From Octopus vulgaris (Eukaryota), in NCBI GenBank assembly GCA_951406725.2, contig OX597816.1, positions 96,472,001 through 96,536,000 of the forward strand: 64,000 nt of DNA, written 5' to 3'. The first letter of the stretch is position 1. Each line of letters starts with the position of its first letter. The notes under the pieces were generated by a model. The model had not been told where the DNA came from, made no database searches, and saw nothing but the letters and a program-made list of their open reading frames with translations. Shown here in pieces: positions 22,536 to 61,042 of this stretch. Position numbers and translations under genes: made by a program.

Positions 22536-22869
22536 GAATACCACTACAAATTAATTCTACACATCATAAATTCTTACGTGCCTGGCTATTGTCCTATAGT
22601 GATTCTCTTCCACAAGAAAGGTACCTTTCACTAACTCGAATCACGTCGCCACATTTTCAAGTGATTTATATGTTTCTTTTATTTTCTCTCATAAAGCACA
22701 AACAGTCTGAAAGGTAAACATCTTATTTCATTTTCTTCGTTCGTTTGTATAACTATTAGCTCAAATTAGTATAGCCATTCATTGTGAGTTTTTGCTTTGT
22801 TTTACGATACTTCTTTTTGTGGTTGCGAGTGTTTGTGTTTCTATGCGTACATATTTCTGTATATGTGTG

Positions 22870-37789: not shown

Positions 37790-38290
37790 TCGTCAGATCC
37801 TAAAAACCTGTTGGCCCCATGACCTCTTAAAAATGTAGAGGAGGCCTTCTTTTTTTCACTAACACTCTTTACCAGGTTTTTGAATACGATAGGTGGGTGG
37901 CAGGAGGCTATGTTAATAATGTACGTTAGCCTCCCGTTTGGTTTGCGGAAGGGCCTGTAATATACCAAGGTCCAAGACATGATCTTCCTAGAATGTTATC
38001 TAGATGTTTCTAACATCCCTTTTTTTATCATACCTAGGGCACCTATAACAACAGGAACAGATCTAAGAAGTCCGTGGTTGTAAGATTGGTCTCTATGGTG
38101 ATTTTCAATCCCATGGAGGCAAGTGTGTTGATTAGATCTTTTCTAAGCCTGTCCAGTTTATGCCCGCTTGACCGCATAGAGATGGCCAGGGCGTCATCTC
38201 CGTAGAGACCAAAGCGGGCAGAGGGAAACTTTTCCTAAGAGTATCGAGGATATACAACCCGATGAAGTCGCATACGTCAGCGTTTTCATA
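37790..38290 (-). mobile_element. Penelope-type RT relic interrupted by a 90-bp foreign patch
   Basis: NADVCDFIGLYIL; FGLYGDDALAI..DRLRKDLINTLASMGLKITIETNLTTTDFLDL; then YRPFRKPN..YI..SCHPPIVFKNL. Confidence 0.75.
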
Positions 38291-39009
38291 AACCCTTGAA
38301 GGCGGTGCTCCAGCATGGCCGCTGTACAATGACTGAAATATATAAAAGGTAAAAGGTAAGTATGTGTATATATATATATGCATTTATGTATGCATGTATA
38401 TACGTATGCGTACATGAAATCAAATTCTACTAAAAACTTAAAGATTAATTTTAGACTTCGGTACAAGACACTTTGTCAACGTATCCTGAAGAAGTGAACA
38501 TCGTTATCACACATTCATCACATTTAAAATTGCAACCCCAGGACGAGGAAACAAGAGATCAAATATCACTACTATATGTGTAATACCTGCCTAGCAATAA
38601 CACCACAGATTATACCAAATAGGTTTCACCAATTTCATCCGTCAAATAAGCTCCTTAATTGAATAAAATAGTATTATTACGCTGTCATCTATCTCATGAG
38701 AATCAGACAATCTGTAGAACCATCGCCAATAACTAATAGGCTTTCCGTACAAGATTTCATCGTAGTTTACTATTATCGCATATCCACACATGAAGCAAAG
38801 CTCCATGTGTGGATAGTAACATAGCGGATATATATTTAGAAGTATAGATTAAGAGACAAGCAATGAAAATATTGCATCACTAATCGACACCTTGCATCTA
38901 TCGCTTGATGGTGTTTGGCGTGTGAACCAAACTGAAAGCGAACGGTGTTCTTTCGATTAAATGAAACTAATAAAACATGCCATAGGTCTTCTATAATATG
39001 ATCCCCAGA

Positions 39010-39073
<64 letters not shown>

Positions 39074-39074
<1 letters not shown>

Positions 39075-41225
39075 TATGTTTGACTTTTGCTTTATATTTG
39101 TACAAGTTGGCTCCAAGTCTCACCCAGAGACCTCAAGAGACAACAGGGTTGGAAGTTCATGTTGTTGTTATGCCTAGTGTGCCATATATTTGGGGGGTGG
39201 GGATGTTGTACTAATGAATGTCTAAAAATAAAAAATTAAAAAAAAAAAAAAATTATGTTTGTTTTAAACCTTGAGATTACATAGAGAGTATTTTGCGTAG
39301 GATATGAGCAGTTCCCATGAGCACTATCTTTTGAACTTCTGCCATTTTTGGGTTTCCTGGTATCTGAGTTAGGTAGCTATTAGCCCCTTTTGCTATCATT
39401 CCCAGGGCACCTATGACAACAGGTATTGTTTTAGTCTTCAGCTTCCACATTTTGCTGATTTCTATTTCAAGATCTTTATATTTGCTCAGTTTTTGGTAGG
39501 TCTTGACAGATACGTTTATATCGATTGGGACAGTCATATCAATGAGGAGGCATGTTCTTTGTTTGAAGTTTTTCAATATGATGTCTGGCCTATTTGCATC
39601 TATCTTCCTGTCAGTTTGAATGGTGAAGTTCCAGAGGAGTGAGATGTGGTCATTTTCAAGCACTGGGGGTGGTTTGTGTTCCCACCAGTTTTTTTCATGG
39701 GGCAAATCCAGGTTTTTACAGATTACCCAGTGAATATATTGTGCAGCTCTATCGTGCCTGTTGAGATACTCTGTAGGCGCTAGAAGACTGCACTTGGAGA
39801 CCACATGGTCAATGGTTTCATTTTGTTGCTTGCATACACGACACGTTGGACTGCTTCTGATCTTTAATATGTTGGCCTGGTAGTTTCTTGTTGGTAGGCA
39901 TTGATCTTGAGCTGCTATGATAAACCCCTCTGTTTCAGATTTTAAGCCAGAGGCCATTAGCCATTGATGGGTCAGGGCTTTGTCGATATCTGCATTATTC
40001 GCTCTCTTTGGGTATTTGCCATAGAGAGGTTTTTCTTGCTATTTATTATTCAGAATATCTAAGGCCGCAGTTTTGGCACGGGTTTTCATGCGCCTAGCTT
40101 TTTCTGTGCTTGTTTCTTGTATATCTATCTCTAATTCCGAAATTGGTTGTATTCGGAATTCACTTAGATATTCCTTTGCCTGTTTTGTGACTGAGTATGA
40201 TGCTTTCTTGTTTTCATGTTTTGAGACAAGTTTTAGCATCCAGTCCTCAGAGTTTTTCAGGTAGGTGTCTAGGCCAATTGTAGCAATCTTCATTGTTATT
40301 GCCAGTTGCAAAAGACCACGGCCTCCCTCTTTTCTTGGCAGATAGAGTCGTTCTGTATCTGCCTTAGGGTGGTGCATTCTATGCATTGTCAACAGTTTCC
40401 TTATTTTTCTGTCGAGCTGACATATTTCAGTAATTGACCAGTTAACAATATTGAAACTGTAAGTCACGACTGGTATAGCTAATGCATTGATTGCTTCGAT
40501 CCTGTTTCTTGCATTCAGCTCTGTCTTGAGTATTGCTCTCACTCTTCGATAGCATTCTCTCCTGATCCTTTCCTTCATCTCTGAATGCCTTATTCCGTTC
40601 CCTTCAATTATCCCTAGGTACTTGTAGCTCTCCGCTGGGTCTAGTTCTTTTATGACATTCTGTTGGTCAAGGTTAACGTTAGATGTTTCTGTCATTTTTC
40701 CTTTGATAAAGGTAGCCTTTGCACATTTATCGAGGCCGAATTGCATTCTGATGTCGTCACTGAATTGTTTGACTATCGCTAGTAAGCCCTTGAGTTGTTC
40801 ATCATTTTTTGCAAAAGCTTTAAATCATCCATGTAAACGAGATGATTTATATTTTTATCAAACATTTTATACCCGTACTGCGCATCATTGAGCAGCTTTG
40901 AGAGAGGTATTAAGGATAAACAAAAGAGGAGTGGTGACAGTGAGTCACCCTGGAAAATGCCACACGAAATTTTTACATCACCAGCATTTAGGGATTCACT
41001 GTCACTGTTCAGAGTTAGTGTGGTTCTCCATGATCTCATACTTACAGTCAAGAAGTTTCGCAGAGTTGGTGCTATCTTATACATTTCAAGGCATTTCCTA
41101 ATCCAGCTATGTGGTAGGCTATCAAAAGCCTTTTTATAGTCTATCCAGGCTATTGATAAGTTTTTGTGTCGTTTGTGACAATCTTCTAAGATCATCTTAT
41201 TGATGAGTAGTTGGTCTTTACAGCC
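39074..41225 (-). mobile_element. R4/Dong-type RLE non-LTR retrotransposon, family A copy 1 (5'-truncated)
   Basis: GCKDQLL, WIDYKKAFDS, GIFQGDSLSP, YMDDLKL, CRVC..HVVSKC knuckle, RHD, RPDII..DMTVP, KLSKY; 3' end abuts (TAA)n 39009-39073. Confidence 0.92.
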
Positions 41226-41269
41226 GTCAAATAAGCTCCTTAATTGAATAAAATAGTATTATTACGCTG

Positions 41270-41303
<34 letters not shown>

Positions 41304-41371
41304 CATTATTATTATTATTATTACTATTATTATTATTATTACTATTGTTGTTGCTGTTGTTGTTGTTGTTT

Positions 41372-42090
41372 ATTTTTAATCAGCATGCTTGTTACAATCA
41401 ATTGCTGAAACACACCCAGCGTCCTAGGGCGAGTGAAGGATAAGAGATATTACAGTATAACGGAAAGCTTGGGGAGGGGTCGTGGCTGGGGCAGTAGTGA
41501 AATATCTTCATGTACAACACAGACATTTAAACTGATAGCGTTTTTCTAAGGATGGGGGCAGTAAATGTCAGCAAAATCTTTTAGATGTCTCTTAGACATG
41601 ATCTTCCTACAATGTTATCTAGATGTTTCTAACATCCCTTTTTTTATCATACCTAGGGCACCTACAACAACAGGAACAGATCTTGCTTTAAGATGCCACA
41701 TCTTTTGTATTTCAATTTCCAGGTCCTTATATTTTTCTTAATTTGTCAAATTCCTTTACAGATATACTTTTATCAGTGGGAACACTTACATCTATTAGTC
41801 AACAAGCATTTTCTTCCTCGACTTTAATAATCATGTCTGGTCGATTAGCTTAGATCTTCTGTCAGTGTTGACTGGAAAATCCCAGAGGATAGTGATATTT
41901 TTACCTTCAACGACTGGTTCAAAATGGTCTTCATATCAGTAAGTAGGTGTGCCGATTTTATAGTGTTTACATATCTTCCAATGTAAATACTGTCTTACCC
42001 TATCGTGCCAATTTTTTGTATTCGTTTGGTGTCAGCTTAAGACATCCCGAAATGAGGTTGTCTATTGTTTCGTCAAATGCGTCACAGAAT
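41372..42090 (-). mobile_element. R4/Dong-type family B copy 1 (RLE domain and 3'UTR)
   Basis: Homologous to 48296-49170; FCDAFDETIDNLIS, ILWDFPVNTD, RPDMI, VPVVVGALG. Confidence 0.8.
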
Positions 42091-42357
42091 CTTTTCGTCT
42101 GCCTTCTTGATTATTCGTGAGTCAAAGGGGCATGCAACATCAACTATATAGCATATGTAGTGCACCTTGTCCACCACCACTAGGACTGGTCTTTTATGGT
42201 CTAGCACCTGATCTGTTTGCATTGGAAAATCACACCACTCTCTGCAGTTCGTGCTCATGCCACATCTTGCCTTTCACTAGCCCCTACTATTCTCACACTT
42301 TCCAATGTAGCCCTTTCGCTACCTGGTTGCATCACCACAAATTGTAGTCGCTTGGGA
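42091..42357 (-). mobile_element. R4/Dong-type fragment of another family (C), RLE region
   Basis: Minus translation QVAKGLHWKV..WHEHE..DFPMQTDQVLDHKRPVLVVVDK..IVDVACPFDSRI; its 5' end abuts (TAA/CAA)n. Confidence 0.7.
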
Positions 42358-42382
42358 TTATTATTATTATTGTTGTTGTTGC

Positions 42383-42413
<31 letters not shown>

Positions 42414-42829
42414 CTTGTTCTTGTTGTTGTTGTGGCTGCTGCTGTTGTTGTTATTAATGTTATTGTCGCCATAGCTGGAGGTATGGTTTTGGAGCGCTGT
42501 AAGTTTATGGCCAATTCACTTGTTTTAAAAGGTTCTATACTGTATTTTGTTGTTTAAATCGTTTTTGCAAGGGGGTGGGTTGATGTTTGTTAACTAAACA
42601 TGTTGGGGGTTATAGAAACCTTTTTGTTTTCAAATTTCTTCGAAAATTAACTTCGAAGAAACTAAGCATTGAAGATGGCGACGAAAAGCGGGAGTGATGA
42701 AGGGAGTAGGGGGAGGATGAAAAGAAGAAGAAGAAGAAGAAGAAGAAGAAGAAGAAGAAGAAGAAGAAGAAGAAGAAGAAGAAGAAGAAGAAGAAGAAGG
42801 TGAAGAGGAGGTAGAAGTAAAGTCTTCCA

Positions 42830-43740
42830 CACTACATGAAAATTGTAGTAGCACGAAGATTTTTACATCTCTTAGTCGACCGTGAATAGGGTGGAGGGGT
42901 TGGCAATGTTCTTCAGAAAATGTCTGGATCTCGAGATACGGTCGGTCTTTATGCATCCTGAAGGTAAGTCGATGGTCCTAGACGTGAACGATAACGAAGA
43001 CACTATTTTAGACTGGTGGTAGTGTGCGCATCGACTGGTGAGGGGTAACCGGAGTTCTTCAGACGCCTGGAGGCCTTTCTAGGGACGTCTCGCTCTTTAG
43101 TGTTAGTGGGCGACTAGAACGCCATTTTAAATGCACGTGTGGATTGGGTGGGGCGAGCAGATGGGAAAGCCTCGCAAAACTGCTCAGTCGTTTTCAGCTG
43201 GCGGACAGGTTCAGACTGGATTTTCAGAACACTCCAGTGTGGACATGGGCAAACAGTGTAGGGTCATCCAGATGTTATCGTATTCTATAGGCCAGCATAG
43301 AGTGTCCACAGTTTGAATTCCTCAACAAACAGACCACAGATTTGTGATCTGCACAGTTGACCTAGGTAGGCTCTATAGGCAGGGACCCGGATAGTGAAAG
43401 CTAAACGCGTCCTTCCCTGTGCGTCAAGCTTTCAGAGACCGGCTTAGCAAGTTAGTCCATAGAAAGTTGACAGGTGTAATCGTCAATAACCTATGAATGG
43501 ATGGGGGCCTAAAACGTGCGGTTAGTGTAGAAGCTGTAGAATTTAACAGAGAACTAGCAATAGAGAAGACTAGAGTAGAAGGAAATCAGGCTATGAAATT
43601 AGAAGAGACACTCAGTAGAGACATAGCAACCTCTGGCAGCGAGATCGGTTCTGAACCAATTCTTCAACACCAAGCATTGTCAGAGCTAGGGTGCATGCTC
43701 TAAAGCAGGAGGGAACGAGAGCCGTTCGATGGGCCCGGGT
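42830..43740 (+). mobile_element. Decayed L1/Tx1-clade LINE APE region following (GAA)n
   Basis: LVLVGD*NAIL, QLADRFRLDFQNTPVWTW, TDHRFVIC, QGPG**KLNAS (GPGYWKLN-like), IVRARVHALKQEG. Confidence 0.7.
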
Positions 43741-43899
43741 GTGAAAATATGGCTCAAAAAGACTGGTAAAAAATGAAAAGATAGAACATCTACAAAAATC
43801 ATCAATACCTGGGACTGCAAGAGTGAAAATGTAGCCCTTCTCTTCTCTCTGTCAACTCGAATATGTAAACGTACCTTTTGTTCCAACAACACTATTAAA

Positions 43900-44228
43900 C
43901 GCACAACAAAAAGTTTGTTCCACATATATCCTCAAAGGGTTTACAAAATGGACCATGCAAAGTTTTCCCTTCAATCTATCTAACTCTCTCCCTTTGAATA
44001 TCATTCTTGTCCTTTTTTTCCTATTCCTCATTTGAACACCTGTTCCTTGTTCACTGTCTTTAATAGTTTCTCTGTGCTGACCTGTAAATATTCTAGTAGG
44101 CCTTTTCTTTCCATAAGTACACACACTTCCACAGCAATTGAGCTTCTTCCACCCTAGTCTCTCTTCAAGCACGACCGATTCATATTAGCTTTTCTATGGT
44201 GGGCTCTATGCATTGTCAACAGCTTTCT
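43900..44228 (-). mobile_element. R4/Dong-type post-RT fragment (family D)
   Basis: RKLLTMHRAHH..LKRD*GGRSSIAVEVCV, homologous to RKLLTMHRMHHPKAD..GGRGL of family A. Confidence 0.6.
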
Positions 44229-44599
44229 AAATGAAAACTCTCAGCTTATTTTGCTGGGTATAATGGAAATTATCAACTGCCCCCAGCCAGCAGACTAAGG
44301 TGATACTTGTTTACTGATCACGCTTCAATAAACATGCAGAGTATTCTTGCAGTCCCAGGTGTTGATGATTTTTGTAGATGTTCTATCTTTTCATGTGTAC
44401 CAGTCTTTTTGAGCCACATTGGTAGATAGCAATTTCCAAGCGCGCCAATCACTATTGATGTCACGTCCACTCTCTTTATTGCCCACATCCTGCATATTTC
44501 CGACTTCAATTCATCATAGTTGTTCAGTTTGTATTTCGCTTTTACTTCGATCCTCTTGTCATCAGGATATGCTATGCCGATTACCAGGCATGTTTTATC

Positions 44600-44601
<2 letters not shown>
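44229..44601 (-). mobile_element. R4/Dong-type family E 3' fragment (others at 49438-49920 and 57990-58850)
   Basis: KTCLVIGIAYPDDKRI..YDELKSEICRMW..IVIGALG; 3'UTR (tttgctgggtat.atggaaa..cagactaagg) shared by all three copies. Confidence 0.78.
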
Positions 44602-44656
<55 letters not shown>

Positions 44657-44668
44657 ATTATTATTATT

Positions 44669-45181
44669 GTGTGAGAGAGCAGCATACGACATCAAAATGA
44701 CAATGGCGTACAAATATACGAAGCCCAATTTCGTATCATGGCTACATATCTGGTAAGGGTACATCAGGCGCATGCATCACAGCCATGTCTAAGCGGCATG
44801 GCAACCTTATATCAAGAAAAAACAGCACTTGAATTTGTAGATGGAGACCAGTTAAAATTTTCTTCACGTCAATTAGCCCATCTTGCTCAAAAGGTCCCGG
44901 AATACGGATTGTTTAAGTATGATGAACGAAGCACCCATGTTTCCAGTGTTGAATTAATCAAACCCTAAAGAATGCATTTGAACACATAGCTGTGGTGATT
45001 CTCCACCGTGACTCCAAGCGCAAATGGCTAAGGTCAAGCAACTGACAAGGAAATATATAGTATTCAGCAGAGTATTTGTTGTAGCACATCTTTTACACGA
45101 AGAAAAATATGTTCTTGATAACACTTCCAATTACTTAAGATCAGCAAACATGAGACCAACTGCCTGGTATTATATTACGGC

Positions 45182-45185
<4 letters not shown>
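44669..45185. mobile_element. ~510-bp non-coding repeat X, copy 1, flanked by (ATT)n; copies at 47241-47706 and 51611-52066
   Basis: Three homologous copies all end in ..ctgcctggta.tgcatcagggcattt; no ORF; orientation uncertain. Confidence 0.8.
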
Positions 45186-45215
<30 letters not shown>

Positions 45216-45216
<1 letters not shown>

Positions 45217-47147
45217 TATGTTTGACTTTTGCTTTATATTTGTACAAGTTGGCTCCAAGTCTCACCCAGAGACCTCAAGAGACAACAGGGTTGGAAGTTC
45301 ATGTTGTTGTTATGCCTAGTGTGCCATATATTTGGGGGGTGGGGTGTTGTACTAATGAATGTCTAAAAAAAAAAAAGGTTTTTAAAAAATTTTTTTTAAA
45401 CCGAAAATTATGTTTGTTTTAAACCTTGAGATTACATAGAAAGTATTTTGCGTAGGATATGAGCAGTTCCCATGAGCACTATCTTTTGAATTTCTGCCAT
45501 TTTGGGGTTTCCTGGTATCTGAGTTAGGTAGCTATCAGCCCCTTTTGCTATCATTCCCAGGGCACCTATGACAACAGGTATTGTTTTAGTCTTCAGCTTC
45601 CACATTTTGCTGATTTCTATTTCAAGATCTTTATATTTGCTCAGTTTTTGGTAGGTCTTGACAGATACGTTTATATCGATTGGGACAGTCATATCAATGA
45701 GGAGGCATGTTCTTTGTTTGAAGTCTTTCAATTTGATGTCTGGCCTATTTGCATCTATCTTTCAGTCAGTTTGAATGGTGAAGTTCCAGAGGAGTGAGAT
45801 GTGGTCATTTTCAAGCACTGGGGGTGGTTTGTGTTCCCACCAGTTTTTTTCATGGGGCAAATCCAGGTTTTTACAGATTACCCAGTGAATATATTGTGCA
45901 GCTCTATTGTGCCTGTTGAGATACTTTGTAGGCGCTAGAAGACTGCACTTGGAGACCACATGGTCAATGGTTTCATTTTGTTGCTTGCATACACGACACG
46001 TTGGACTGCTTCTGATCTTTAATATGTTGGCCTGGTAGTTTCTTGTTGGTAGGCATTGATCTTGAGCTGCTATGATAAACCCCTCTGTTTCAGATTTTAA
46101 GCCAGAGGCCATTAGCCATTGATGGGTCAGGGCTTTGTCAACATCTGCATTATTTGCTCTCTTTGGGTATTTGCCATAGAGAGGTTTTTCTTGCCATTTA
46201 TCATTCAGAATATCTAAGGCCGCAGATTTAGCACGGGTTTTCATGCGCTTAGCTTTTTCTGTGCCTGTTTCTTGTATATCTATCTCTAATTCCGAAATTT
46301 GTTGTATTCGGAATTCACTTAGATATTCCTTTGCCTGTTTTGTTACTGAGTATGATGCTTTCTTGTTTTCATGTTTTGAGACAAGTTTTAACATCCAGTC
46401 CTCAGAGTTTTTCAGGTAGGTGTCTAGGCCAATTGTAGCAATCTTCATTGTTATTGCCAGTTGTAAAAGTCCACGGCCTCCCTCTTTTCTTGGCAGATAA
46501 AGTCGTTCTGTATCTGCCTTAGGGTGGTGCATTCTATGCATTGTCAACAGTTTTCGTATTTTTCTGTCAAGATTACATATTTCAGTAATTGACCAGTTAA
46601 CGATACTGAAACTGTAAGTCACGACTGGTATGGCTAATGCATTGATCGCTTCGATCCTGTTTCTCGCATTCAGCTCTGTCTTGAGTATTGCTCTTACTCT
46701 GCGATAGCATTCTCTCCTGATCCTTTCCTTCATCTCCGAATGCCTTATTCCTTCTCCTTCAATTACCCCTAGATACTTGTAGTTCTCTGCTGGGTCTAAT
46801 TCTTTTATGACATTCTGCTGGTCAAGGTTAACGTTAGGTGTTTCTGTCATTTCCCCCTTTGATAAAGGTAGCTTTTGCGCATTTATCGAGGCCAAATTGC
46901 ATTCTGATGTCATCACTGAATTGTTAGACAATCGCTAGTAAGCCCTTGAGTTGTTGGACATTTTTTGCAAAGAGCTTTAAAAAATCCATGTAAATGAGAT
47001 GATTTATATTTTTATCAAACATTTTATATTCGTACTGCGCGTCATTGAGCAGTTTTGAGAGAGGTATTAAGGCTAAACAGAAGAGGAGCGGTGATAGTGA
47101 GTCACCCTGGAAAATGCCACATGAAATTTTTACATCACCAGCATTTA
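45216..47147 (-). mobile_element. R4/Dong-type family A copy 2 (5'-truncated)
   Basis: ORFs 45432-45731, 45762-46931 and 46924-47289; near-identical to copy 1 including 3'UTR; (TAA)n on both sides. Confidence 0.92.
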
Positions 47148-47159
47148 TTATTATTATTA

Positions 47160-47241
<82 letters not shown>

Positions 47242-47701
47242 ACTAGGCACATGCATCACAACGAAATGTGTGTGAGATGGTGATCTCATATCAAGATAAA
47301 CAGCACATGATCTTGCAGGTGGGGTCCAGTTAGAATTTTCTTCTGGTCGAGCATCCCATCCCGCTTAAATGATCCCTGAATAAGGGTTGTTTAAGGATGA
47401 TGAACAAAACACCCATGTTTCCAGAGAGGAATAATTCAAACCCCAAAGAATCCTTCTCAACACATGGCTATGATGCTCCCCTCACTACTTCTGCTCGTGA
47501 TCAGAGATGCACATATCGTCAGCCACTAAGGGACATGCTCAACTGGTTATGGTCAAACAACTAACAAGCAAGTGTGTGGTATTGAGCAGAATATTTGCTG
47601 TAGTTCATCTTTTATACCAAGACAAAACAATGTACATGATAACACTTCTGATGAGTTAAGATCAGAAGCCATGAGAGCCACTGCCTGGTATTGCATCAGG
47701 G

Positions 47702-47752
<51 letters not shown>

Positions 47753-47753
<1 letters not shown>

Positions 47754-48212
47754 TTTTTTTTCTTCTTTCAAATTTGCTTCCATTTCTTGCCGAGTGTCTT
47801 CCCGACTCCTAGGGCAAAGAAACTCATAGTATACATTGGTAGGCCATTAAACCAAACTCAGTAGTTCGTTCATTTTTTTTTTTTTTAAAGTTAAATTAAA
47901 ATACATGAGCAGCAACAGTTCTCACATCGACAATGCTCTTCTCAATACGTGTGATGTACCAGTTAAGACAATCTTTTGCACTTCTTGCAGGGATGGTAAG
48001 CCAGGGATCATTCTCATATAATTTTCGGTTCCCTTCTTGATCATTCCTAGTACTCCTACGATCACTGGTATTGTAACCGCCTTGAGATGCCACATTTTCT
48101 CAATTTCAATGAGTAGGTCTTTATATTTTCTGAGCTTGTCAAACTCTTTCGCTGAGATATTATGATCACAGGGGATGCTCATGTCGATCAATAAGCAAAC
48201 TTTATTGTTTGC
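47753..48212 (-). mobile_element. R4/Dong-type family F 3' fragment
   Basis: LIDMSIPCDHNISAKEFDKLRKYKDL..PVIVGVLG; (TAA)n on both sides. Confidence 0.85.
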
Positions 48213-48295
<83 letters not shown>

Positions 48296-49170
48296 GTCAT
48301 TTACTTTTAGTCTGCATGTTTGATGCAATCACTTGCCGGGGCACACTCAGCGCCCTAGGGCAAGTGAAGGTTAAGAGTTGTTGAAATATAGCTGAAAGCC
48401 TGGGGAGGGGAAGTAGCGAAATATCTCCATGTAATACAACACAAACATTTACATTGATAGGGTTTTTCTAAGGATGTGGGCAGTACTTGTTAGCACAATC
48501 TTTTGGATTTCCTTGAGACATGGTTCTCCAGGGATATTGCCTAGGTGTTTCTGACACCCTTTTTTATCATACCTAGGGCACCTACAATAACAGGAACAGT
48601 TTTTGTTTTAAGATTCCATATCTTTTGTATTTCCATTTCCAGGTCCTTATATTTACTAAGTTTGTCAAATTCCTTTAAAGATATCAGTGGGGACGCTTAC
48701 CTCTATTAGTCTGCAGGTATTTTCTTCCCTGTCTTTAACAATTATATCTGGTCGATTAACCTTGATCGTTCTGTCAGTGTTGACTGGAAAATCCCAGAGG
48801 ATGGTGACATTTTTACTTTCAACAACTGGCTGAGGATGATGTTCATACCAGTTAGCAGGAGTGCCGAATTTGTAGTGTTTACATATCTTCCAATGTATAT
48901 ACTGTCCTACCCTATCGTGGCGATTTTTGTATTCGTTTGGTGTCAGCACAGGACATCCCGAAACGAGGATTATTTCGTCAAATGTGTCGCAGAATCTGCA
49001 TTTAGGGTCAGTACCCTTTCGGAGAACGCTAGCCTGGCAATTTCTGGTAAACAAGCTTTGATCTTGTGCTGTCAGTATGAAGCCTTCAGTCTCTGCTTTC
49101 AATCCTGAACTCTTCAGCCACTGATGGGCTGCTTCTTGGTCTACATCAGCATTTTGGCTTCGGAGAATAT
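48296..49170 (-). mobile_element. R4/Dong-type family B copy 2
   Basis: KAETEGFILTAQDQ, CRFC, RHDRVGQYIHW, RPDII; (TAA)n on both sides. Confidence 0.87.
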
Positions 49171-49174
49171 ATTG

Positions 49175-49234
<60 letters not shown>

Positions 49235-49435
49235 GATCTGGAAGAATCGTTAGCACGTCATGTCCAATGCTTAGCAGCATTTCGTCCGTCTTCACGTCCT
49301 GAGTTCATACAGTACCGTGGTAGACTTTGTCTTTCATCTTTTCGGGGTCGATAAATTAAGTAGTAGCTGAATATTGGACTTCACCCTTCTCCTAAATTAT
49401 TGGCTTTGAGCTAAAATTTGAAACCATTATTATTA
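49235..49435 (+). mobile_element. tRNA-type SINE (12 kb family) with short (ATT) tail
   Basis: agaatcgttagcacg..tgcttagcagcatttcg..gagttca..tttcatcttttcggggtcgataaattaagta. Confidence 0.7.
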
Positions 49436-49437
49436 TT

Positions 49438-49920
49438 TCATAAAAACTCTCTGCTTATTTTGCTGGGTATGATGGAAAGTGTCAGCTGCCCACAGCCCTG
49501 CAGACTAAGGTGATACTTGTCTACTGTTCATGCTACAAGAGCCCAGCAGAAAACTGATGCAGTCTCAACAAATGATGATTTTTGTAGGTGTTCTATCTTT
49601 TGATTTGTACCAATCTTTTCGAGTCATGTTGGTAGTTGAGTACTGATTATTCCAAGCGCGCAAATCACTATTGGTATCACATCCACTCTCTTCATTGCCC
49701 ACAATCTGCGTATTTCCCCTTCAATTCATCATAGTTGCTCACATTTTAATTCGCTTCCTTTTCGATCCTGTTGTCACCGGGATATTCTATGCCGATTAAC
49801 AAGCAAGTTTTTCCTATTCATCACAACAAAGTTAAGTTTCCGATGCCTAATCTGATGGTCACGCTGAATTATTGCAGCCCACAGGATTATGCAATCCTCA
49901 TTCTCAATAAATCCTTTTGG
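49438..49920 (-). mobile_element. R4/Dong-type family E copy 2
   Basis: PKGFIENEDCIILW..DHQIRHRK; family E 3'UTR; 5' end abuts (TAA)n. Confidence 0.78.
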
Positions 49921-49934
49921 ATTATTATTATTAA

Positions 49935-50010
<76 letters not shown>

Positions 50011-50026
50011 CATCATCATCATTATT

Positions 50027-50239
50027 AAGGTGGTGAGTTGGCAGAATTGTTAGCACGCCGGGCAAAATGCTTCGCGGTGTTTCTTCTGTCGCTGAATTCT
50101 GAATTCAAATTCTGCCGAGGTCGACTTTGCTTTTCATCCTTTCGGGGTCGGTAAATTAAATACTAATGAGACACTGGGGTCGATGTATTCTAATATCCCC
50201 CTCCCAACAAACTTTAGGTCTTGTGTCTATAGTAGAAAG

Positions 50240-50240
<1 letters not shown>
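50027..50240 (+). mobile_element. Full-length tRNA-type SINE with long (ATT)n tail (50241-50306)
   Basis: aaggtggtgagttggcagaattgttagcacgccgg..gaattcaaattctgccgaggtcgactttgc..cctttcggggtcg..agtagaaagc. Confidence 0.8.
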
Positions 50241-50306
<66 letters not shown>

Positions 50307-50309
<3 letters not shown>

Positions 50310-50800
50310 TAGTTTTATTTTTATAGCGTGCTTTCACTTCACTACCGAGCGGATCTCTGTGCGCTTTGGGTATGTGCTGTGGTTTGCTGTGATGCTCTTG
50401 TGGTTACTGTATTGAAAGTGTTTTGCGTAGGATGTGTGAAGTGCCTAGTAGTGCAATTTTCTGTATGTTATATATATTTGTAAGTCCTGGTGTTTTTGTT
50501 ATGTAATTCTGAACATTTTTTTTCATACCTAATGCGCCTACTATGATAGGAATTGTTTCTGTTTTTAGATTCCATATACGAGTTACCTCTATTTCCAGGT
50601 CTTTGTATTTTGAAAGTTTCTCCATTTCTTTTAGAGACACGTTGTCATCTGCTGGTATTGATACATCAATTAGAAAGCATTTTTTTCTTCCTGATCTCTG
50701 ACAACTATATCTTCTAATGGGGATGGCTTTGGTTTTCACGAGTCCCTCTTTTGTTTGGAGCACTGTCTGCCATTTATTTATAGTGTGTCTTATATATTTT
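50307..50800 (-). mobile_element. R4/Dong-type family H, internally deleted (RT piece fused to RLE piece)
   Basis: KWQTVLQTKEGLVKTKAIPIRR joined to DIVVRDQ..CFLIDVSIPADDNV..KLSKYKDLEIE..PIIVGALG. Confidence 0.8.
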
Positions 50801-50827
50801 ATAATAATAATAATAATAATAATAATA

Positions 50828-50892
<65 letters not shown>

Positions 50893-50896
50893 CATT

Positions 50897-51610
50897 GCTA
50901 TATGTTTGACTTCTGCCTTGTATTTGTACTAGTTGACTCGAAGTCTCACCCAGAGACCTCAAGTTAGATGTTCAAGTTGGTGTTATGCCTAGGGTGTCAT
51001 ATATTTGGTTTTATATATAGTATTGTTCTAGAGAATGTTTAAGAAAACATGACAAAGTTATAAGTTTGTTTTAAACTATGGCATTACATATACAATTTAT
51101 TATGAAGGATATGGGAAGTTCCCATGAGTACTATCTTTTGAAAATCTGACATTTTTGGGTTTGATTTCAGGCCTAGGTAGGAATCAACCCCTTTTTCTAT
51201 CATTCCTAGGGCACCTATGACAACTGGTATTGTTTTAGTCTTGAGATTCAACATTTTGCCAATTTCTATTTCAAGCTCTTTATATTTGCTCAGTTTTTGG
51301 TAGGTTTTAACAGATACAGTTATGTCCATTGGGACAGTCATGTCAATGAGGAGGCATGATTTTTGTTTGAAGTCTTTCAATATAATGTCTGACCTATTCG
51401 CATCTATCTTTCTGTTAGTTTGAACGGTGAAGTTCCAGAGGAGAGGAGTGAGATGTGATCAATTTCAAGCACTGGAGGTGGTTTGTGTTACCACAAGTTT
51501 TTTTCATGGGGAAGGTCCAGGTTTTTTGCAAATTACCCAGTGAATATATTGTGCTGCTATATCATACCTGTTAAGATACTCTGAAGACGCAAGAAGACAG
51601 TATGATCAAT
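50897..51610 (-). mobile_element. R4/Dong-type family A, diverged subfamily 3' fragment
   Basis: KDFKQKSCLLIDMTVP..KLSKYKELEIE; A-type 3'UTR (gtctcacccagagacctcaag). Confidence 0.85.
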
Positions 51611-52066
51611 ATGCCATCAAAATGACACTGGGGTAAATTATACAATGCCCAGTTTACTCATCCTGACTACCCGTCTGATATTTGTACACAAGGCACATGC
51701 ATCACACCCATTTGCGCGATACAGTGATATCATATCAAGATAAATAGCGCATGACCTTGCAGGAAGGCGCAGTTAGAATTTTCGTCAGATCGAGTAGCCC
51801 AAACTAATCAAAAGATCCCTGAATAAAGCTATGATGCTCCCCCACTATTTCTGCTCGTGATCAGGGATGCACATATCGTCATCCACGAAGGGACATGCTC
51901 AACTGGTTATGGTAAAACAACTGACAAGCAAATCTGTGGTATTGAGCAGAATATTTGTGGTAGCCCATCTTTTATACCAAGACAAAACAATGTACATGAT
52001 AACACTTCGAATCAGTTAAGACCAGAAGTCATGAGAGCCACTGTCTGGTACTGCATCAGGGCATTT

Positions 52067-52097
<31 letters not shown>

Positions 52098-52324
52098 CCA
52101 TCACCCCCCCACCACCACCATCCTCCTCCTCCTCCTCATCATCATCATCATTATTATTATTGTTATTATTGTTGTTATTATTGTTATTATTGTTGTTGTT
52201 GTTGTTGTTGTTGTTATTATTATTATTATTATCATTATCATCATCATCCTCATTATTTTTTTCCTTCATTCTTCAAATGAGTGTTTTATTATTACTATTA
52301 TTATTATTGTTGTTATTGTTGTTG

Positions 52325-52370
<46 letters not shown>

Positions 52371-54224
52371 GTTTTTTCCTTCTTTCTTCAAATTTTGTTC
52401 CGTTTCTCGCCGAGTGTTTCCATACACCTAGGGCAGAAAAGAGCATTGTATGCATTCCCAGATTACACGCGCAAATTCACAGATTAAATATGTAACTAAA
52501 AATTAATAAATAAATAAATTCATGGATCGATGTTATTTTCACAGCGAGTGTTCTTCTCAGTACATGAGCCGTTCCACCTAATACGATTTTTTGCACTTCC
52601 TGTAAGGATGGTAAGCCTGGAGTCATTTTCAAATAGGGTTCAGTGCCATTTTTTTATCATTCCTAGAGATCCTACAATCACTGGTACTGTAGTCGCCTTG
52701 AGATACCACATTTTTTCAATTTCCATTAGCAGGTCTTTATATTTACTAATCTTGTCAAATTCTTTCGCCGCTATATTATGATCACATGGAATACTCATGT
52801 CAATTAATAAACACATCCTTTTTGTCTGATCTTTTATAATGATATCCGGTTTATTGGCTTTATAGTCCTGTCGGTCTGCACGGGGAAGTCCCATAGCATC
52901 GACACATTTTCTCCCTCAGTCACAGCTTCAGGATGATGTTTATACCATTTGTCAGCGGTTTTGATTTTATAATGCCGACATATTGTCCAGTGTAAATACT
53001 GGCCGACTCTGTCATGTCTTGCTTTATATTCTGCCGGTGCTAAGACTCTACACCCTGAGATTAGGTGGTCTATTGTTTCAATCTCATCGTTACAGAATCG
53101 ACATTTTGAGTCAGCTCCATTTTTCATCACATTGGCTTGATAGTTCCGGGTAAATAAACTTTGGTCTTGAGCAGCTAATATGAAACATTCACTCTCTGCT
53201 TTTAGCCCTGAACTTCGTAACCATTGGTGCGTGTGTTTCTGGTCGACATCAGCTTGTCGGGCCACATACTTGCCATGGAGAGGTTTCTGTTCCCATCTGC
53301 TAGCTAAATTTTCATGTGCTTTTGTCTTCGCAATTAATTTTATTTTCTTTGCAGCTGCAGTTGGCGCAATTCCTTCAGCCTGCTCAATCTGGCGGGTATC
53401 TAAGAGATCAGCAGCGAATTTTTTGCTCTCTTTGAGAATAGAGTGAAGTTTTTTAGGTCTTTCATGTTTTTCAACAAGTTTTAGCATCCAATCGTTGGTT
53501 GCTTCAAGGTATTTGGCCAATCCGATTGTGGTGGTTTTGTATGTAAGTTCAAGCTGGATCAAACCTCGACCTCTCTGAGCTCTGGGAAGGTAAAGGCGAT
53601 CCACGTCTGCCTTTGGATGGTGCATCTTATTACAAGTCAGTAGCTTGCGGATTTTCCTGTCAATTTTCATTATTTCAGTAGTATTCCAGTTAAGCACATT
53701 GAAGCTATAAAGAACAACTGGTACTGCTAAGGAATTTATGGCTAAAACCTTATTATATGCATTCAGCTCAGACTTCAGGACTGCTCGAACTCTTCTATAA
53801 CATTCTTTCCTAACCTTCTCTTTCATGCTTGCATGCTGGATACCAGAGCCTTCATTTATTCCTAGGTATTTATAGGTTTGTTCCTGCTCAAGTTCCTTTA
53901 TTACTATTTCGACATCTAATTCGATTGAACTAGACTTTACCAATTTCCCTTTCTTAAAAGTGGCTTTGGCACACTTTTCAAGGCCAAACTCCATCCCGAT
54001 ATCATCACTGAATCCTTTCACAGTATGTAATAATCCTTCAAGCATTTCATCATCTTTGCCATATAGCTTTAAGTCATCCATATAAAATAGATGGCTTATT
54101 TTCTTGTTGTCAATTTTGTAGCCATATCCTGTTCTATTCAGTTCACTTGAGAGTGGTATTAGTGCTATGCAGAATTATCCTGTTCTATTCAGTTCACTTG
54201 AGAGTGGTATTAGTGCTATGCAGA

Positions 54225-54226
<2 letters not shown>
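52371..54226 (-). mobile_element. R4/Dong-type family G (F-related), 5'-truncated
   Basis: ORF 52834-54081: YMDDLKL, KYLG, GRGL, CRFC..HLISGC, RHD; then KPDII..DMSIP in 52640-52894; (TAA)n on both sides. Confidence 0.92.
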
Positions 54227-54319
<93 letters not shown>

Positions 54320-56859
54320 TCGTCATCAATATCTGTGATGAAGACAGAGAAACGGCAGGATCGCTAGCATGCTGAACAAAATGCTTAATAGTAGTTCGTC
54401 CATTTTTACGTTCTGCGCTCAAATTCTGCCGAGGTTAACTTTGCTTTTAGATTAATGTATACTTTTCAAGCTTGACTGAATCAATAACTCACGAGGCAGA
54501 TGACGTTTTTTTGAATTCAGTTATAATATCGTGACATGGATGCTAGTGAAGTTATAGCAATATATAGTATTAGAACTGCAATGTAAGGAACACTACAACA
54601 GACAATGCTCGTGGACTCAGTTGATCTTTACGGTTATTGATTTCCATTTTAATTTACATTCTCTGGAATAAGTGCGAAACTGCGGTGACATAAATTTGAG
54701 TAACTTAATACAGATTTGAATCTTTCTGCCTGATTTGACTTATTTTCATTGGTAGCCAGCCGCAGTAAACTGAGTTTCAATGTAAGGGTTTGACTTCAAT
54801 CATTCGACCTAATCATCTATGTATTTCATGCTTCTGACAAAGATTTGAATGTAACAGATATATTAGAGAAATAATTATATACGAAATACTTTCTTCATCA
54901 GCTATCCTGCATTCTTTAGCGACAGTTTAACTAGCTGTGGGTATCGTTAGTGACAGTTTAACTGGCTGTGGGTGTCGTTGATTTAATTGAAATACAATGT
55001 ATATTTGATTACATTATACAATATGTTCTTCCATCCTTTTTAAAGACGATAGGGCGTGATTTGAGTGAAATTTGACTATTGGTTTTGGCAGTTAGAAAAC
55101 ACCTCGAGACTTCCTCGTTGACTCGCTTTCAAATGCAGTAAGCCATTGAAATCTATAACTTATAAAACCGATGGCTTCAAAACCGTGTATCACAATTAAT
55201 CCTTGCTTCTCGATAAAAAAGAATAAAAACATTTATCAAATGAAAAATATTGAAAATTAAAAAGAAAATAATTTCATTGAATTTAAAATAGAAATCTTAA
55301 GAAAGAGATGAGATCTATCAACTAACTGTTCAACCAGTTACTGATTAGGTTGATTAAGTTAAAGAATCCATTATCAATGAACATTCTATATGGCAACCAG
55401 TTTAAATCATAATTTCGGAAGGAAAATATTTCAGAAAGGAGAAAAGATTTTTTTTTTTTCTAAAGCATATATTTTTTTCACCTTGTTTCTCAGAAAACCT
55501 TTCATCTCAGCATTTTCATTTCACATGCGAAAAGAAAAAAGATTAAAAAAAAATAATTCTGCGCCATTCAAGTTTATTGTGAGATCAGCAAATGGTGGCA
55601 ATAAGGAAGTAGTCATGAATAAAAGATGAAGATATTTTTTATAGAGGCGAGTGATTGCAGGCGATGTTCAAACCATTCACTTTCGTGTCCAACATGTTGA
55701 ATAAAATTGAAATTTTAGTTAGAAAACGAAAGCGCTTCCTGTTTCCGAAACGGCTACATAATGTTGACATTAATGCAGGCCAATGTTGTGGTAATGCGTG
55801 TTGAAAATCTAAATTTGTTAAACAAAGTTGAAGATTCGGAGATTGTGAAAAGTTCACGGATATGCCCAAAAGCCCAATTCTTACAATTTATTCTGTGGTT
55901 TCGTCTACAATACTGCTGCTGGTCGATAAAGTATTAGTTCATTAAAAGGTATACTCAAGCTATGACTTCATACAGATACGGCGCTACCCAACCACAAAGA
56001 ACACTGACAATGAACAAGACAATACAATTCACAAATAAGACGACTTTGATATTGAATATTTACAAATAATACCTTAACTGTTGAAAGCGCTAGCTTGAAT
56101 ACCCCAAATAATAATATTGTCACTATCACTCTTCACCAAATGAGTATCTTTCCACTACTTTGCATACCAGTAGCAACTTTGATGGAGAAGTAAGCACTAG
56201 AGAAATTCTGAATAGAATCTTCTCACATAAAAGTCAGCGTTGGGTCGAGGCACACCACAAAAGACGGTACCTCAGTATCTGATAACTACATAAACAAGCA
56301 AATAAAACATGGCCTCCTAAAAACTGGAGTTGAAATCCAAGCACGTGGAACTAGCAGGTAGTTAATCATAAATAAAAATTCCATTTATTGTGTTATCTGT
56401 TTCCTGACTGAAATATATCTTTTATTTTATATATAATATTATATTTCTTTAATTATTCTATAAAATTGATTTTATTCTAAAAACTTCACCTTCTCGTAAT
56501 TCCATTGTTGAATGTGTGAAGGCGGTTTTAATAGCTAAGTTAATCGTTATAAATATTTGTGGACAACTTTACCTTTCATTCTATCGGGGTCGACAGATAG
56601 GTATTTTGAGGTAATCAGCCTGCTCACACCACTCGACATTACTGGCTTCCTACTAAAATTATAAAGGATTTATTATTATTGATATTGCAGTTGAAAGGGA
56701 GGTAAGACAGTAGAATCTGCGCAATACTGGCCTTACTCTTTGACTTCCGAGTTCAAATTCATCGTAGTTGTTCTCTTTTTCTTTCTTTTCCACTTCAATC
56801 CTGTTTATGTTATTATTTATGTTATTGTTTATGTTAATTACCCGGCATGTTTTATTTTA

Positions 56860-57750
56860 TTTTCTGTTCACTACAGCAACGTCAGATTTTCGATGTTTTA
56901 TCTGCTGGTCATATCGTATTTATTACATCCCACAGGATTTTGCAATCCTCATCATCAGTAACTCCATCTGAGAGTTGCTTATGTCACGTCTTCGAGCTCT
57001 CTAGGCCGTAATTTCCACAAAGCTCCCAATGGATTATTCTTGCAGCTTTGTGGTGTCGCCTTTTGTATTCACGTTGTGTTAATTTCGGGCACTCACTAAC
57101 AATGTGGCACGCTGTTTCACCCCTATCACCACATGTACCTCATTTGTCGCTATCAGTTGTTTTATCAATTCTGCACTTCACACTTTTTGTCCCCAGTGCT
57201 TGTTCTTGTACCGTACATATAATTGCTTCTGTTTCACTGCTCTGTATGCATAGCCACCAGCCTTCTGTATCTGTATTTGTGCTTGTGTCTCTTGCAAACT
57301 GACCGTATATATATTTTTTTCCTTTCCAAACCATTTCTGCTTTTCGTTATTTTTCTCCCTCTTTCAATTCCCCTTTCTCGATTCAGTTATTAGTTTTGAT
57401 TATGCCAGACTTCGTAATCATCATCAATGGTTCCACGACATACTTACATAACACTCTAAACTATTTTCTTCTGATTCAGCACAATGCTGACAGCTGATCA
57501 GTCCCCACCCCCCGCCATTTTCTCTGGCCAGGTACAACCGATCAGTGTCACTTTTAGGGTGAAACGCTCAGTACAATGTCAATAATTTTCGTGTCTTCGT
57601 AACCATAGTTGATTTTCCTTCTGCCAGTTTACGATTCCAGCTCCATACCTAAGTGATGGTATCGCCCATGTTTTTACCGCTTAAAATTGATTCTAAGTGT
57701 TCGGAAATACACTTTCTTCAGCTGTTCTTTCATTTCCTTCTCCGTGATGA
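56860..57750 (-). mobile_element. Old, decayed R4/Dong-type fragment (E-like)
   Basis: WLCIQSSETEAIICTVQEQAL, TCGDRGETACHIVSECPKL..EYKRRH..IIHWELC, KILWDV. Confidence 0.72.
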
Positions 57751-57989
57751 TTGAAAAGTAGTATGCCAAAATACATACTACTTCAAATTATCCGTGAAAA
57801 GAAGATATTTGATTCTGAGTAATTTACTTGAACTTATATTCCAGATTCACTTTCCTAAACCCTAAGGTCAGAGGGATCGGGTTAAGTACAAAAACCAACG
57901 GAGATAAACAATTTCCTGGGAAAATCTGCGTCTCACATCATTATTGTTGTTATCGTCGTCGTCGTCGTCGTCATCATCATTGTCATTAT

Positions 57990-58850
57990 GTGATGAAAGC
58001 TCACAGCTCATTTTTGCTGGGTATGATGGAAAGTGTCAGCTGTCCACAGCCAGCAGACTAAGGAGACACTTGTTTACTGGTCATGCTTCAAAAACCCTAC
58101 GAAGAATTCTTGCAGTCCCAAGCAATGCTGATTTTTGTAGCTGTTCTACCCTCATACTTGCACCAATCTTTTGCATCCATGTTAATAATTGATGCTGATA
58201 CTACCAAGTGCACCAATTATTATTGGTATCCCATCTACTCTCCTCATTGACCACAACCTTCATATATCCCACTTTAAGTCGTCATAGTTGTTTGTTTTTA
58301 TTTCTTTCACATAGATCCTGTTGTCACCGGGGCATGCTATGCTCATTATCATGCATTTTCTTTCTTTTTTATTCAGCACAACGATGTCCGGTTTCCTATG
58401 TCTGGTCAGGTGATCACAATGGATCATTGTGTCCCACAAGATTTTGCAATTCTCATTCTCGGTGACTCCTTCTGGGTTTTACACATACCACGCCTTTGCT
58501 CTTTGGAGGCCGTGATTTCCACAGAGCTCCCAATGGGTCGTTCTTTCCACATTATCATGGCGTCGTCTGTATTCGCGTTGTGCCAATTTCGGACATTCGC
58601 TAACGATGTGCCATAGCGTTTCAATCCTCTCACCGCATATTCTGCATTTGTTGCTGTCGGTAATGTTGTCTACTCTACACTTCATATAGTTGGTTCTGAA
58701 TGCTTGTTCTTGAGCTGCGCATATGTGTGCTTCTGTCTCTATCTTCAGGCCACTCCTCCTCATCCATAGCCACCGGTCTTCTGTATGTCTTGGCATTCAC
58801 ATCTCTTGCAAACTGACGGTACATTTTCTTTTCCATCCACGCCTTTCCTT
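57990..58850 (-). mobile_element. R4/Dong-type family E copy 3
   Basis: WLWMRRSGLKIETEAHICAAQEQA..CRICGERIETLWHIVSECPKLAQREYRRRHD; family E 3'UTR. Confidence 0.82.
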
Positions 58851-58869
58851 TTTTGGGGGTTCATTCGCA

Positions 58870-59110
58870 AGCCGGGGAAATAGTTAGAAGCATTTCTTCC
58901 TTACTCATTATGTGTTCTGAGAACAAATTCTTCCGAAGTTGACTTTGCTTTACATCCATTCAGGATCGATAAAATGTTCTGAGAACAAATTCTTCCGAAG
59001 TTGACTTTGCCTTACATCCATTCAGGATCGATAGAATGAAGTACCAGTTAAGTACTGCAATTGATGTAATCGATGCCCTCACATCACGAAACTGCTGTTG
59101 TTTTAATGAT
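58870..59110 (+). mobile_element. SINE (12 kb family) with a 62-bp internal tandem duplication
   Basis: tgttctgagaacaaattcttccgaagttgactttgc.ttacatccattcaggatcgata at 58913 and 58975. Confidence 0.7.
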
Positions 59111-59769
59111 ACTGACGTGGAATTCTTCTGAACGTTACACGAAGTTGGTAATAGTGCACTGTTGCTCAAAACAAGGGAATACTTGTTTTTTTCATCGGCT
59201 GCTATCAAGCTATTTGTTGCATCCTGTAACTAAAATATCTAAAATAATTTTTCGATACATGAATCAACACAACGAATTAGCTCTCTAAAATCAGTTGCAT
59301 GACTTGATCAAAGAAACATTAAATTTTACATGTTAACCTTGCTTTAGAGCTATTTTTGTTGTCATAGAGATCGGAACTGTAATCGACTTTATTTCAGCCT
59401 TTCAAAAATAGAAAATAAGGAAGCTGTTACATACCACAGAGAAGAACGGCAACATTACTTTGAAAACGATAAAATGTATTTGTTACAACATTAATTTCCT
59501 GGTGTATGTTGATCTCGTCTTAATATAAGGTATTCTGAATAATAAAAGCGTAACATATTTGACCTTTGGCTGGTCTGATGACTACGTTTGAATGAGCACG
59601 ATGAGGACGTCGACGGAGGAGCTGACGATAGCGATGACGACAACGACGGTGACAATGATGATAATTAAAGACGATAGACTATGATAATCAGGATTGTATC
59701 GTTTGTGCGTATCGTCATCGTTACCATCATTTTGCCACTCAGCTCTCCTATGCTTATAAGGATTATAAT

Positions 59770-59975
59770 AATCCTTTCTACTATAGGCACCAAGTCTGAA
59801 GTGGCGAAAGGAGTAGTCGATTACATTGACACCAATACTGGACTGGTATTTATTTTATCGATCTGAAAGGAAGAAAAAGTAAAATAGACCTCAGCAACAT
59901 TTGAACTAAGAATATGACATAAATGCTGCTAAACTTTACGTTCGGTGTGCTAAGGGTCTGCTAGCTCTCCGCCTT
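59770..59975 (-). mobile_element. SINE (12 kb family), minus strand
   Basis: cctttctactataggcac..gtcgattacattgac..ctggtatttattttatcga..atttgaact..ctccgcctt. Confidence 0.65.
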
Positions 59976-59983
59976 AAGGATTA

Positions 59984-60945: not shown

Positions 60946-61042
60946 TATTACATGAGAAAATGAGGGGAGTGCAAAAGTGTTAGGTCCAGGAAAATGTGGC
61001 ATATATATATATATATATAGATATATATATAGATATATATAT

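Follow-up and report, generated by a model that had tools for sequence, protein, structure and literature searches.

Why do fragments of several retrotransposon lineages lie side by side, all in one direction, within some 20 kb of an octopus genome? The stretch analyzed (hereafter the window) comprises 64,000 nucleotides of Octopus vulgaris DNA (assembly GCA_951406725.2, contig OX597816.1, positions 96,472,001 to 96,536,000 of the forward strand). It contains a nest of 14 dead, 5'-truncated fragments of Dong-type long interspersed nuclear elements (LINEs), which represent at least five lineages and run in one direction between (TAA)n tracts. The nest has probably grown by insertions that split such tracts. 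A first-pass annotation, made from the letters alone, had described the region as a polarized array of (TAA)n-targeted R4/Dong-type elements.

By frameshift-aware translation, 14 Dong-type fragments were resolved between 39.07 and 58.85 kb, all on the minus strand and all 5'-truncated, in agreement with the approximately 14 minus-strand fragments with reverse transcriptase (RT), CCHC or restriction-like endonuclease (RLE) motifs that had been annotated in about 20 kb. The longest fragment begins ~660 aa upstream of the C terminus of an open reading frame (ORF) of ~1200 aa. The tblastn search with 84 homologues of 1050–1300 aa, taken from 120, gave matches of full-length homologues on the minus strand only (39280–58839, and a 60-bp scrap at 38017–38076). 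The remaining matches in the window were weak RT cross-matches to two LINEs of the apurinic endonuclease (APE) type on the plus strand (3.8–5.1 and 7.7–9.0 kb). This search bore out the annotation in that the first 37.9 kb, repeat-rich as they are, carry no Dong copy. Dong sequence of several lineages occupies 12.7 of 19.8 kb (64%) on one strand. Both naive chance values, 2 × 10−6 for clustering and 1 × 10−4 for polarity, are inflated, since this feature was the reason for choosing the window and the copies depend on their target.

The fragments are grouped in three blocks (39.0–42.5, 43.7–54.5, and 56.6–58.9 kb) and do not form the one continuous array proposed; descent from one single founder tract is likewise not supported, as 2.1 kb of single-copy DNA cuts off the last block. 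The 1.3-kb stretch between blocks I and II (42453–43745) contains (AAG)26, and neither a Dong match by tblastn nor a telling ORF was found in it. The window as a whole is AT-rich, with many AT, GATA, and TG microsatellites, short interspersed nuclear elements (SINEs), and LINE relics. The features of the nest are listed below by position in the window (UTR, untranslated region).

39010..39073, minus strand: terminal (TAA)21 tract at the 3' edge of the nest
39074..41221, minus strand: Dong-type copy A1 with RT part, CCHC, RLE, and UTR class A; longest copy, 5'-truncated, of a high-copy family
41218..41273, minus strand: 56-bp piece joined to A1 at its 5' junction through ~4 nt of microhomology; matches the flank at 38633–38688 with 96% identity
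41272..41362, minus strand: (TAA)n/(CAA)n tract
41363..42092, minus strand: decayed copy B1, UTR class B
42093..42356, minus strand: decayed fragment H, from another lineage and without UTR; fused to the B1 5' end
42357..42452, minus strand: decayed (TAA/CAA)n tract at the 5' edge of block I
43746..43822, plus strand: inverted 77-bp piece, 93.5% identical to E1 (E2 82%, E3 77%)
43928..44230, minus strand: fragment T (thumb region), without UTR, fused to the E1 3' end
44231..44600, minus strand: copy E1, UTR class E, without 3' tract
44669..45183, no strand assigned: non-coding repeat Q1, tract on both sides, sense probably plus
45216..47144, minus strand: copy A2, flanked by tracts on both sides; 5' junction with TAA microhomology
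47241..47704, no strand assigned: repeat Q2, one end shortened, tract on both sides
47753..48212, minus strand: copy C, UTR class C/F, tract on both sides
48296..49176, minus strand: copy B2, tract on both sides
49233..49425, plus strand: SINE copy S1, (TTA)n upstream and (ATT)n tail
49441..49920, minus strand: decayed copy E2
50027..50241, plus strand: SINE copy S2, (TTA)n on both sides
50307..50800, minus strand: copy D with its own UTR class; an internal deletion has joined a short RT piece to the RLE part
50801..50828, plus strand: nine inverted TAA units at the D 5' junction, the only long tract of opposite polarity
50897..51590, minus strand: copy A3 of an older A subfamily; 5' end joins Q3 without a tract
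51609..52066, no strand assigned: repeat Q3
52067..52370, minus strand: long decayed tract of TAA, CAA, GAT, and GAG units
52371..54226, minus strand: copy F, spanning RT part to UTR class C/F; its 5' end carries a perfect 51-bp tandem duplication (54125–54227)
54227..54318, minus strand: (TAA)30 tract at the 5' edge of block II
54354..54448, plus strand: SINE fragment S3, ~35 nt past the tract
54450..56560, no strand assigned: single-copy spacer between blocks II and III
56561..56680, plus strand: decayed SINE S4 with (ATT)3 tail
56734..57925, minus strand: E-like relic Er, present at the same place in organism E
57991..58854, minus strand: copy E3, with a decayed tract (57940–57990) on its 3' side

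The identity of the fragments was examined by domains and phylogeny. RVT_1 and zf-RVT were found in them and no APE domain, and the layout is that of an RLE-type ORF (RT, CCHC knuckle, and C-terminal PD..D/E-xK). YMDD is present in A1 and F, CCHC in A1, A2, F, and E3, PD..D in 6 of 14 fragments, and K..KY/NY in 12 of 14. In the FastTree analysis of 62 rows, six window copies fell within a 55-row group (Shimodaira–Hasegawa-like support 100) together with louse, Spodoptera, cnidarian, and fish proteins; an R2-like protein and another RLE protein fell outside this group, on long outgroup branches. A C-terminal tree placed 13 window copies. The tree was built without any sequence named Dong or R4, and the link to that clade runs through host species: Pediculus and Spodoptera members are listed as R4/Dong in PMC7998251 (papers are cited by PubMed Central number, here and below from excerpts of their text), which gives (TAA)n as the R4/Dong target in most insects, molluscs, and cnidarians. 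This grouping supports the predicted membership of the R4/Dong group, in line with the annotation. Only RT, with or without the zinc finger, was recognized by Pfam in full-length relatives; two of them (P0091 and P0105) carry an N-terminal OTU-like protease domain. R4/Dong elements are characterized by a divergent Myb/SANT domain at the N terminus, free of zinc fingers, which is absent from the window, where every copy is truncated. By regular expression, none of 10 full-length relatives has a C2H2 finger and 7 have a W[TS]xxE Myb-like start, a search that also missed the finger of the R2-like control. The nearest solved relatives of a full-length homologue are R2 structures (8GH6, 9NL2, and 9DOU; E value, 4 × 10−28), which share the RT and RLE design. 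R2 is nevertheless distant: the R2-like control protein reaches an E value of 1 × 10−90 and lies outside the group, and the target of R2 is ribosomal DNA.

Lineages A, B, C/F, and D are related, with 52–67% identity to the nearest of three reference proteins, and lineage E forms a deep branch (32–46%); fragment H may be a sixth lineage. The 3'UTRs fall into five classes (A in three copies, B in two, C/F in two, D in one, and E in three), with local scores of 75–349 within and 11–29 between classes, against a shuffle maximum of 26 obtained from one shuffled pair. The at least five 3'UTR types of the annotation were thus recovered with a different lettering. A weakly conserved hairpin, a candidate protein-binding element, was seen ~40–60 nt before the tract in classes A, B, C/F, D, and E; it is weak (−5.1 kcal/mol), with some double change in 4 of 6 pairs in an uncertain alignment. 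A hepatitis delta virus (HDV)-like ribozyme is described at the 5' end of Dong (PMC3774820); a loose descriptor, run without a positive control, gave 0 matches between 37.5 and 59.1 kb, where all 5' ends are lost. The Rfam search returned nothing at gathering level (seven chance-level matches, E value up to 1), and no relative was found in the IMG/VR scans.

The (TAA)n microsatellite is the known target of Dong (PMC3812793, PMC7998251), and the ends of the fragments were compared with it. The whole 3'UTR is kept in 11 of 14 fragments, and 10 of these 11 adjoin (TAA)n or a decayed derivative; 5' ends follow directly after a tract in 10 of 14. On the plus strand, (TTA)≥5 runs number 17 between 39.0 and 54.3 kb and 0 elsewhere in the window, with one inverted (TAA)9 at 50802. 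All long runs lie in 39.0–54.3 kb, so that the absence of Dong copies from the first 37.9 kb coincides with an absence of long targets. The 3' ends of family E run into (TAA)n genome-wide, as in 4 of 4 runs (89–148 contigs each) the loose contig ends at 58012 have the sequence TATTATTATT. Relatives from metagenomes were examined in the best 80 of 431 confirmed loci, on contigs of 1–7 kb. Of 72 scorable ends, 46 have (TAA)≥3 in the 600 nt that follow the ORF and 0 have (TTA)≥3, against 5 of 142 windows of coding background, and (TAA)≥3 precedes the 5' break in 14 of 26 truncated copies. Both the truncation with 3' ends at (TAA)n and the (TAA)n targeting claimed in the annotation were upheld by these counts. 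At one locus (L046), two relatives 170 bp apart point in opposite directions, each within its own tract, indicating that orientation follows the tract and not the region.

The 5' junctions show TAA microhomology at A2, the flank-derived piece at A1, the tandem duplication at F, and the inverted tract at D, and by these traits they look like in-place products of target-primed reverse transcription. Comparable snap-back 5' junctions are reported for R2 proteins (PMC11371274). An inverted (TTA)n run at the 5' junction of truncated Dong-type copies was seen in three unrelated cases (50801–50828; L009, ~225–268; L028, ~5795–5885); it could be a fold-back of the target, able to seed insertions of opposite polarity.

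The same tracts might instead be mostly the elements' own tails, expanded by slippage, with the cluster owed to low purging (a gene desert, little recombination, or an intron permissive for one orientation only) more than to multiplication of targets. Every long tract touches an element end, no empty long tract is present in the window, family A is very abundant, the three blocks share their polarity across unique DNA, and hotspots of transposable elements (TEs) are known in octopus (PMC13282606), all of which would suit such piling by chance. This explanation is nonetheless unlikely, as tails alone do not give tracts before the 5' ends, seen in 10 of 14 fragments here and 14 of 26 relatives. 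No regional strand rule is seen either: outside the nest, SINEs are split evenly (4 plus, 4 minus), and the LINEs at 2.6–9.8 kb are on the plus strand. The first 37.9 kb are rich in repeats yet without a Dong copy.

The tracts are shared with other sequences on the opposite strand. The four SINE copies inside the nest are all on the plus strand, so that only the Dong copies are unidirectional and not, as had been annotated, the whole array. Three of the four come after a (TTA)n tract and three retain an (ATT)n tail, and most lie within Dong tracts. The non-coding repeat Q is present in three copies of ~0.5 kb, found only inside the nest within the window, with one fixed end at a tract and tracts on both sides in two copies. 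The sense of Q is probably plus, judging from its variable end and terminal hairpin, and a 3'-truncated minus-sense element is possible; no Rfam match and no likeness to the 3' ends of the window's two APE LINEs were found for it. A plus-strand ATT tail reads TAA on the minus strand, and SINE and Q passengers thus keep the Dong polarity; they may seed tracts of that polarity.

SINE copies outside the nest also stand in tandem (22085–22540 and 12038–12650), one of them sitting in the ATT tail of another, and the copy at 12.0–12.4 kb is framed by a direct repeat of ~20 bp. A 62-bp tandem duplication lies in a SINE just past the 5' edge of the nest (58913–59038). Further on, the repeat at 59905–60350 reaches a very high copy number in organisms A, B, and C, whereas organism E has next to no depth there; it is a young lineage-specific element. 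The two nearly whole APE-type LINEs lie side by side on the plus strand (2655–5762 and 6637–9785), and we take them to be CR1/L2-like and RTE-like. A fragment of a mariner-like transposase was seen at 29386–29865.

Strand bias of this kind invites a reading as a unidirectional source locus of PIWI-interacting RNAs (piRNAs) that selection has maintained or shaped. Transposons are enriched in molluscan piRNA clusters (PMC6128900), and the 64% of one-strand Dong sequence from several lineages would fit such a locus. This reading is very improbable, for the polarity is fully explained by the tract, only one LINE clade has been collected, and the flanks lack strand bias. In a unidirectional piRNA cluster of the flamenco type, transposons of all kinds would be expected to be oriented one way. 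Here, 14 of 14 Dong fragments are on the minus and 4 of 4 SINE copies on the plus strand.

Whether the copies arrived separately was examined by their flanks and substitutions. Between copies, homology ends at the element ends, and 5' breakpoints and neighbors differ for every pair. A1 and A2 are 95.4% identical, with dS (synonymous divergence) 0.118, dN (nonsynonymous divergence) 0.022, and a ratio of 0.19 (95% bootstrap interval 0.11–0.30; Fisher P value, 2 × 10−11); the ratio is 0.32 for A1/A3 and 0.14 for F/C. As judged from these substitution patterns, the A copies were shown to come from different active masters and not from local duplication. The range of ages in the annotation holds for its decayed copies and not for its near-identical pairs, the closest pair being A1/A2. 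Family A is dispersed and high-copy in each of the 4 runs, which represent three organism codes (8,678–34,284 contigs, identities across 90–100%). Read depth was taken over 39075–41290 and 54330–60990, both without long tracts; the summed depth of family A, which is no copy number, is ~1 × 10^4 to 2 × 10^6 against 6–60 for single-copy DNA in the same run, and it drops towards the 5' end, most clearly in runs X1, X3, and X4. No RNA-editing scars, in the form of an excess of A>G over T>C, were detected in 23 of 23 polarized comparisons (lowest P value, 0.125; H, T, C, and D outside the test), and the transitions between A1 and A2 (35 purine and 18 pyrimidine) are evenly split between the copies.

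Tandem or segmental duplication of a few insertions, which the annotation itself had named as a refuting outcome, or an assembly artefact is scarcely credible and already largely refuted: same-family pairs exist (A1/A2, B, and E) and three short local copies record DNA copied within the region, but the absent flank homology, the A1/A2 ratio, and the five UTR classes argue for independent insertions, and spacer and relic are contiguous in contigs of other organisms. The inverted 77-bp piece at 43746..43822 is likely a local templated copy of E1. A 90-bp piece of B1 (37975–38064, 97.8% identical) was found set by short microhomologies into an RT relic on the minus strand (37820–38300), which by motif we take to be Penelope-like; from its identity and junctions it is likely a local templated insertion from 3.6 kb away.

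Old copies are intermixed with young ones, without an age gradient (Spearman coefficient −0.06, P value = 0.83, with a noisy age proxy in which the A1 value was lowered by hand, as 2 of its 3 stops fall in the junction piece and not in the element). Growth of the nest from one end finds no support in this lack of gradient. The spacer is at single-copy depth in 4 of 4 runs, and a single 2,870-nt contig from organism E extends from beside (TAA)30 through the spacer into the E-like relic at ~93% identity, indicating that the old part of the nest predates the split from that organism.

Growth by repeated target-primed insertion would account for these observations as follows. The endonuclease would nick the TTA strand and reverse transcription would start at the UAA-ended RNA, so that the strand of the tract fixes the direction; this step is taken from the biochemistry of the R2 group and supposed for Dong. 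Copies made in this way would carry UTR-(TAA)n at their 3' end and start directly behind (TAA)n. The 3' arrangement is seen here, and the 5' one in most copies, with demonstrable TAA microhomology in one case. Such copies would derive from separate active masters, as the A copies do by their substitutions. The ATT-tailed SINEs found in the same tracts, whose tails preserve the polarity, may both seed and use tracts, carried by another LINE. Each insertion would split a tract into two of the same polarity, and more tracts would bring more insertions, so that the nest would grow from within over a long time; the three blocks may derive from two or three founder tracts. Self-amplification, in which each insertion raises the chance of the next, is plausible. 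No host function is needed to explain the nest, and nothing here shows one.

Several observations weigh against growth by tract-splitting insertion. A 5' tract is missing from four of the 14 fragments and a 3' tract from E1, indicating that deletions and rearrangements also shaped the region. The dN/dS ratio is uninformative for B1/B2 (0.64, with an interval spanning 1) and for E (1.05 for E1/E2 and 0.70 for another E pair), and the independence of B1/B2 and E1/E2 therefore rests on their different 5' ends and flanks, because the ratio cannot separate the two origins. The blocks share polarity though at least one is separated by unique DNA, which has a chance of 0.5–0.25 or reflects a regional bias. 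In 88.6 kb of flank, a same-strand neighbor was found at 1 of 80 metagenome loci (L031) and an opposite-strand neighbor at 2; large nests are therefore not typical of those animals, as far as contigs of this short length can tell. Self-amplification is a plausible deduction from a single nest, and the clade is placed through the host species of the proteins in the tree.

The elements, their (TAA)n target, and the formation of tandems are already known, and the nest is a good example of an ordinary mechanism. In Dong of Bombyx mori, DongAg, DongBg, and the R4 clade, as here, RT, CCHC, and RLE lie in one ORF with (TAA)n on both sides (PMC3812793, PMC7998251, PMC3774820); the excerpted papers deal with elements and target, whereas here a 14-fragment nest of at least five lineages is seen in which all copies are truncated and dead. 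For octopus, five recently active Dong-R4 families with 1,129 insertions and 4.73 Mb are reported in O. vulgaris (PMC13282606, PMC8967140, PMC9115989), where Dong-R4 has the greatest length of all recently active LINE classes (PMC13282606, Table 1); the nest copies likely belong to this superfamily. Neither nest nor orientation nor piRNA is mentioned in the PMC13282606 main text, as far as it was available. Site preference of LINEs is known to yield tandems of truncated copies, and tandem TEs arise by double insertion (McGurk and Barbash 2018, PMC5932611); tandem Utopia elements are described in U2 genes (PMC4640811). Unlike double-insertion tandems, Utopia, and the Drosophila telomeric arrays, the target here is a microsatellite that survives on both sides and is common to many lineages and to opposite-strand SINEs, and growth appears internal and not at one end. 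No description of a multi-lineage, two-strand Dong nest was found in the literature searched, a weakly shown negative, as key older papers, Repbase, and supplements lay outside that literature.

We tentatively propose, with rather more doubt than confidence, that the TAA/TTA microsatellite is a two-strand niche, in which Dong elements on one strand and ATT-tailed SINEs and Q on the other would cross-seed and split each other's targets with no loss of polarity. The resulting rich-get-richer growth would build polarized multi-lineage nests, accounting for a measurable share of the octopus TE hotspots, and fold-back (TTA)n runs (1 of 14 fragments here and 2 of 26 relatives) would be a rare flip of polarity.

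Even if ordinary, the locus is a natural example of how a microsatellite-specific retrotransposon builds polarized nests without selection, and a caution against inferring a piRNA cluster from strand bias. The young families A and C/F point to (TAA)n-specific RLE enzymes without a solved structure. If true genome-wide, such nests would hold a dated record of several Dong lineages on one target, and the cross-seeding loop would be a simple cause for part of the transposon hotspots of octopus.

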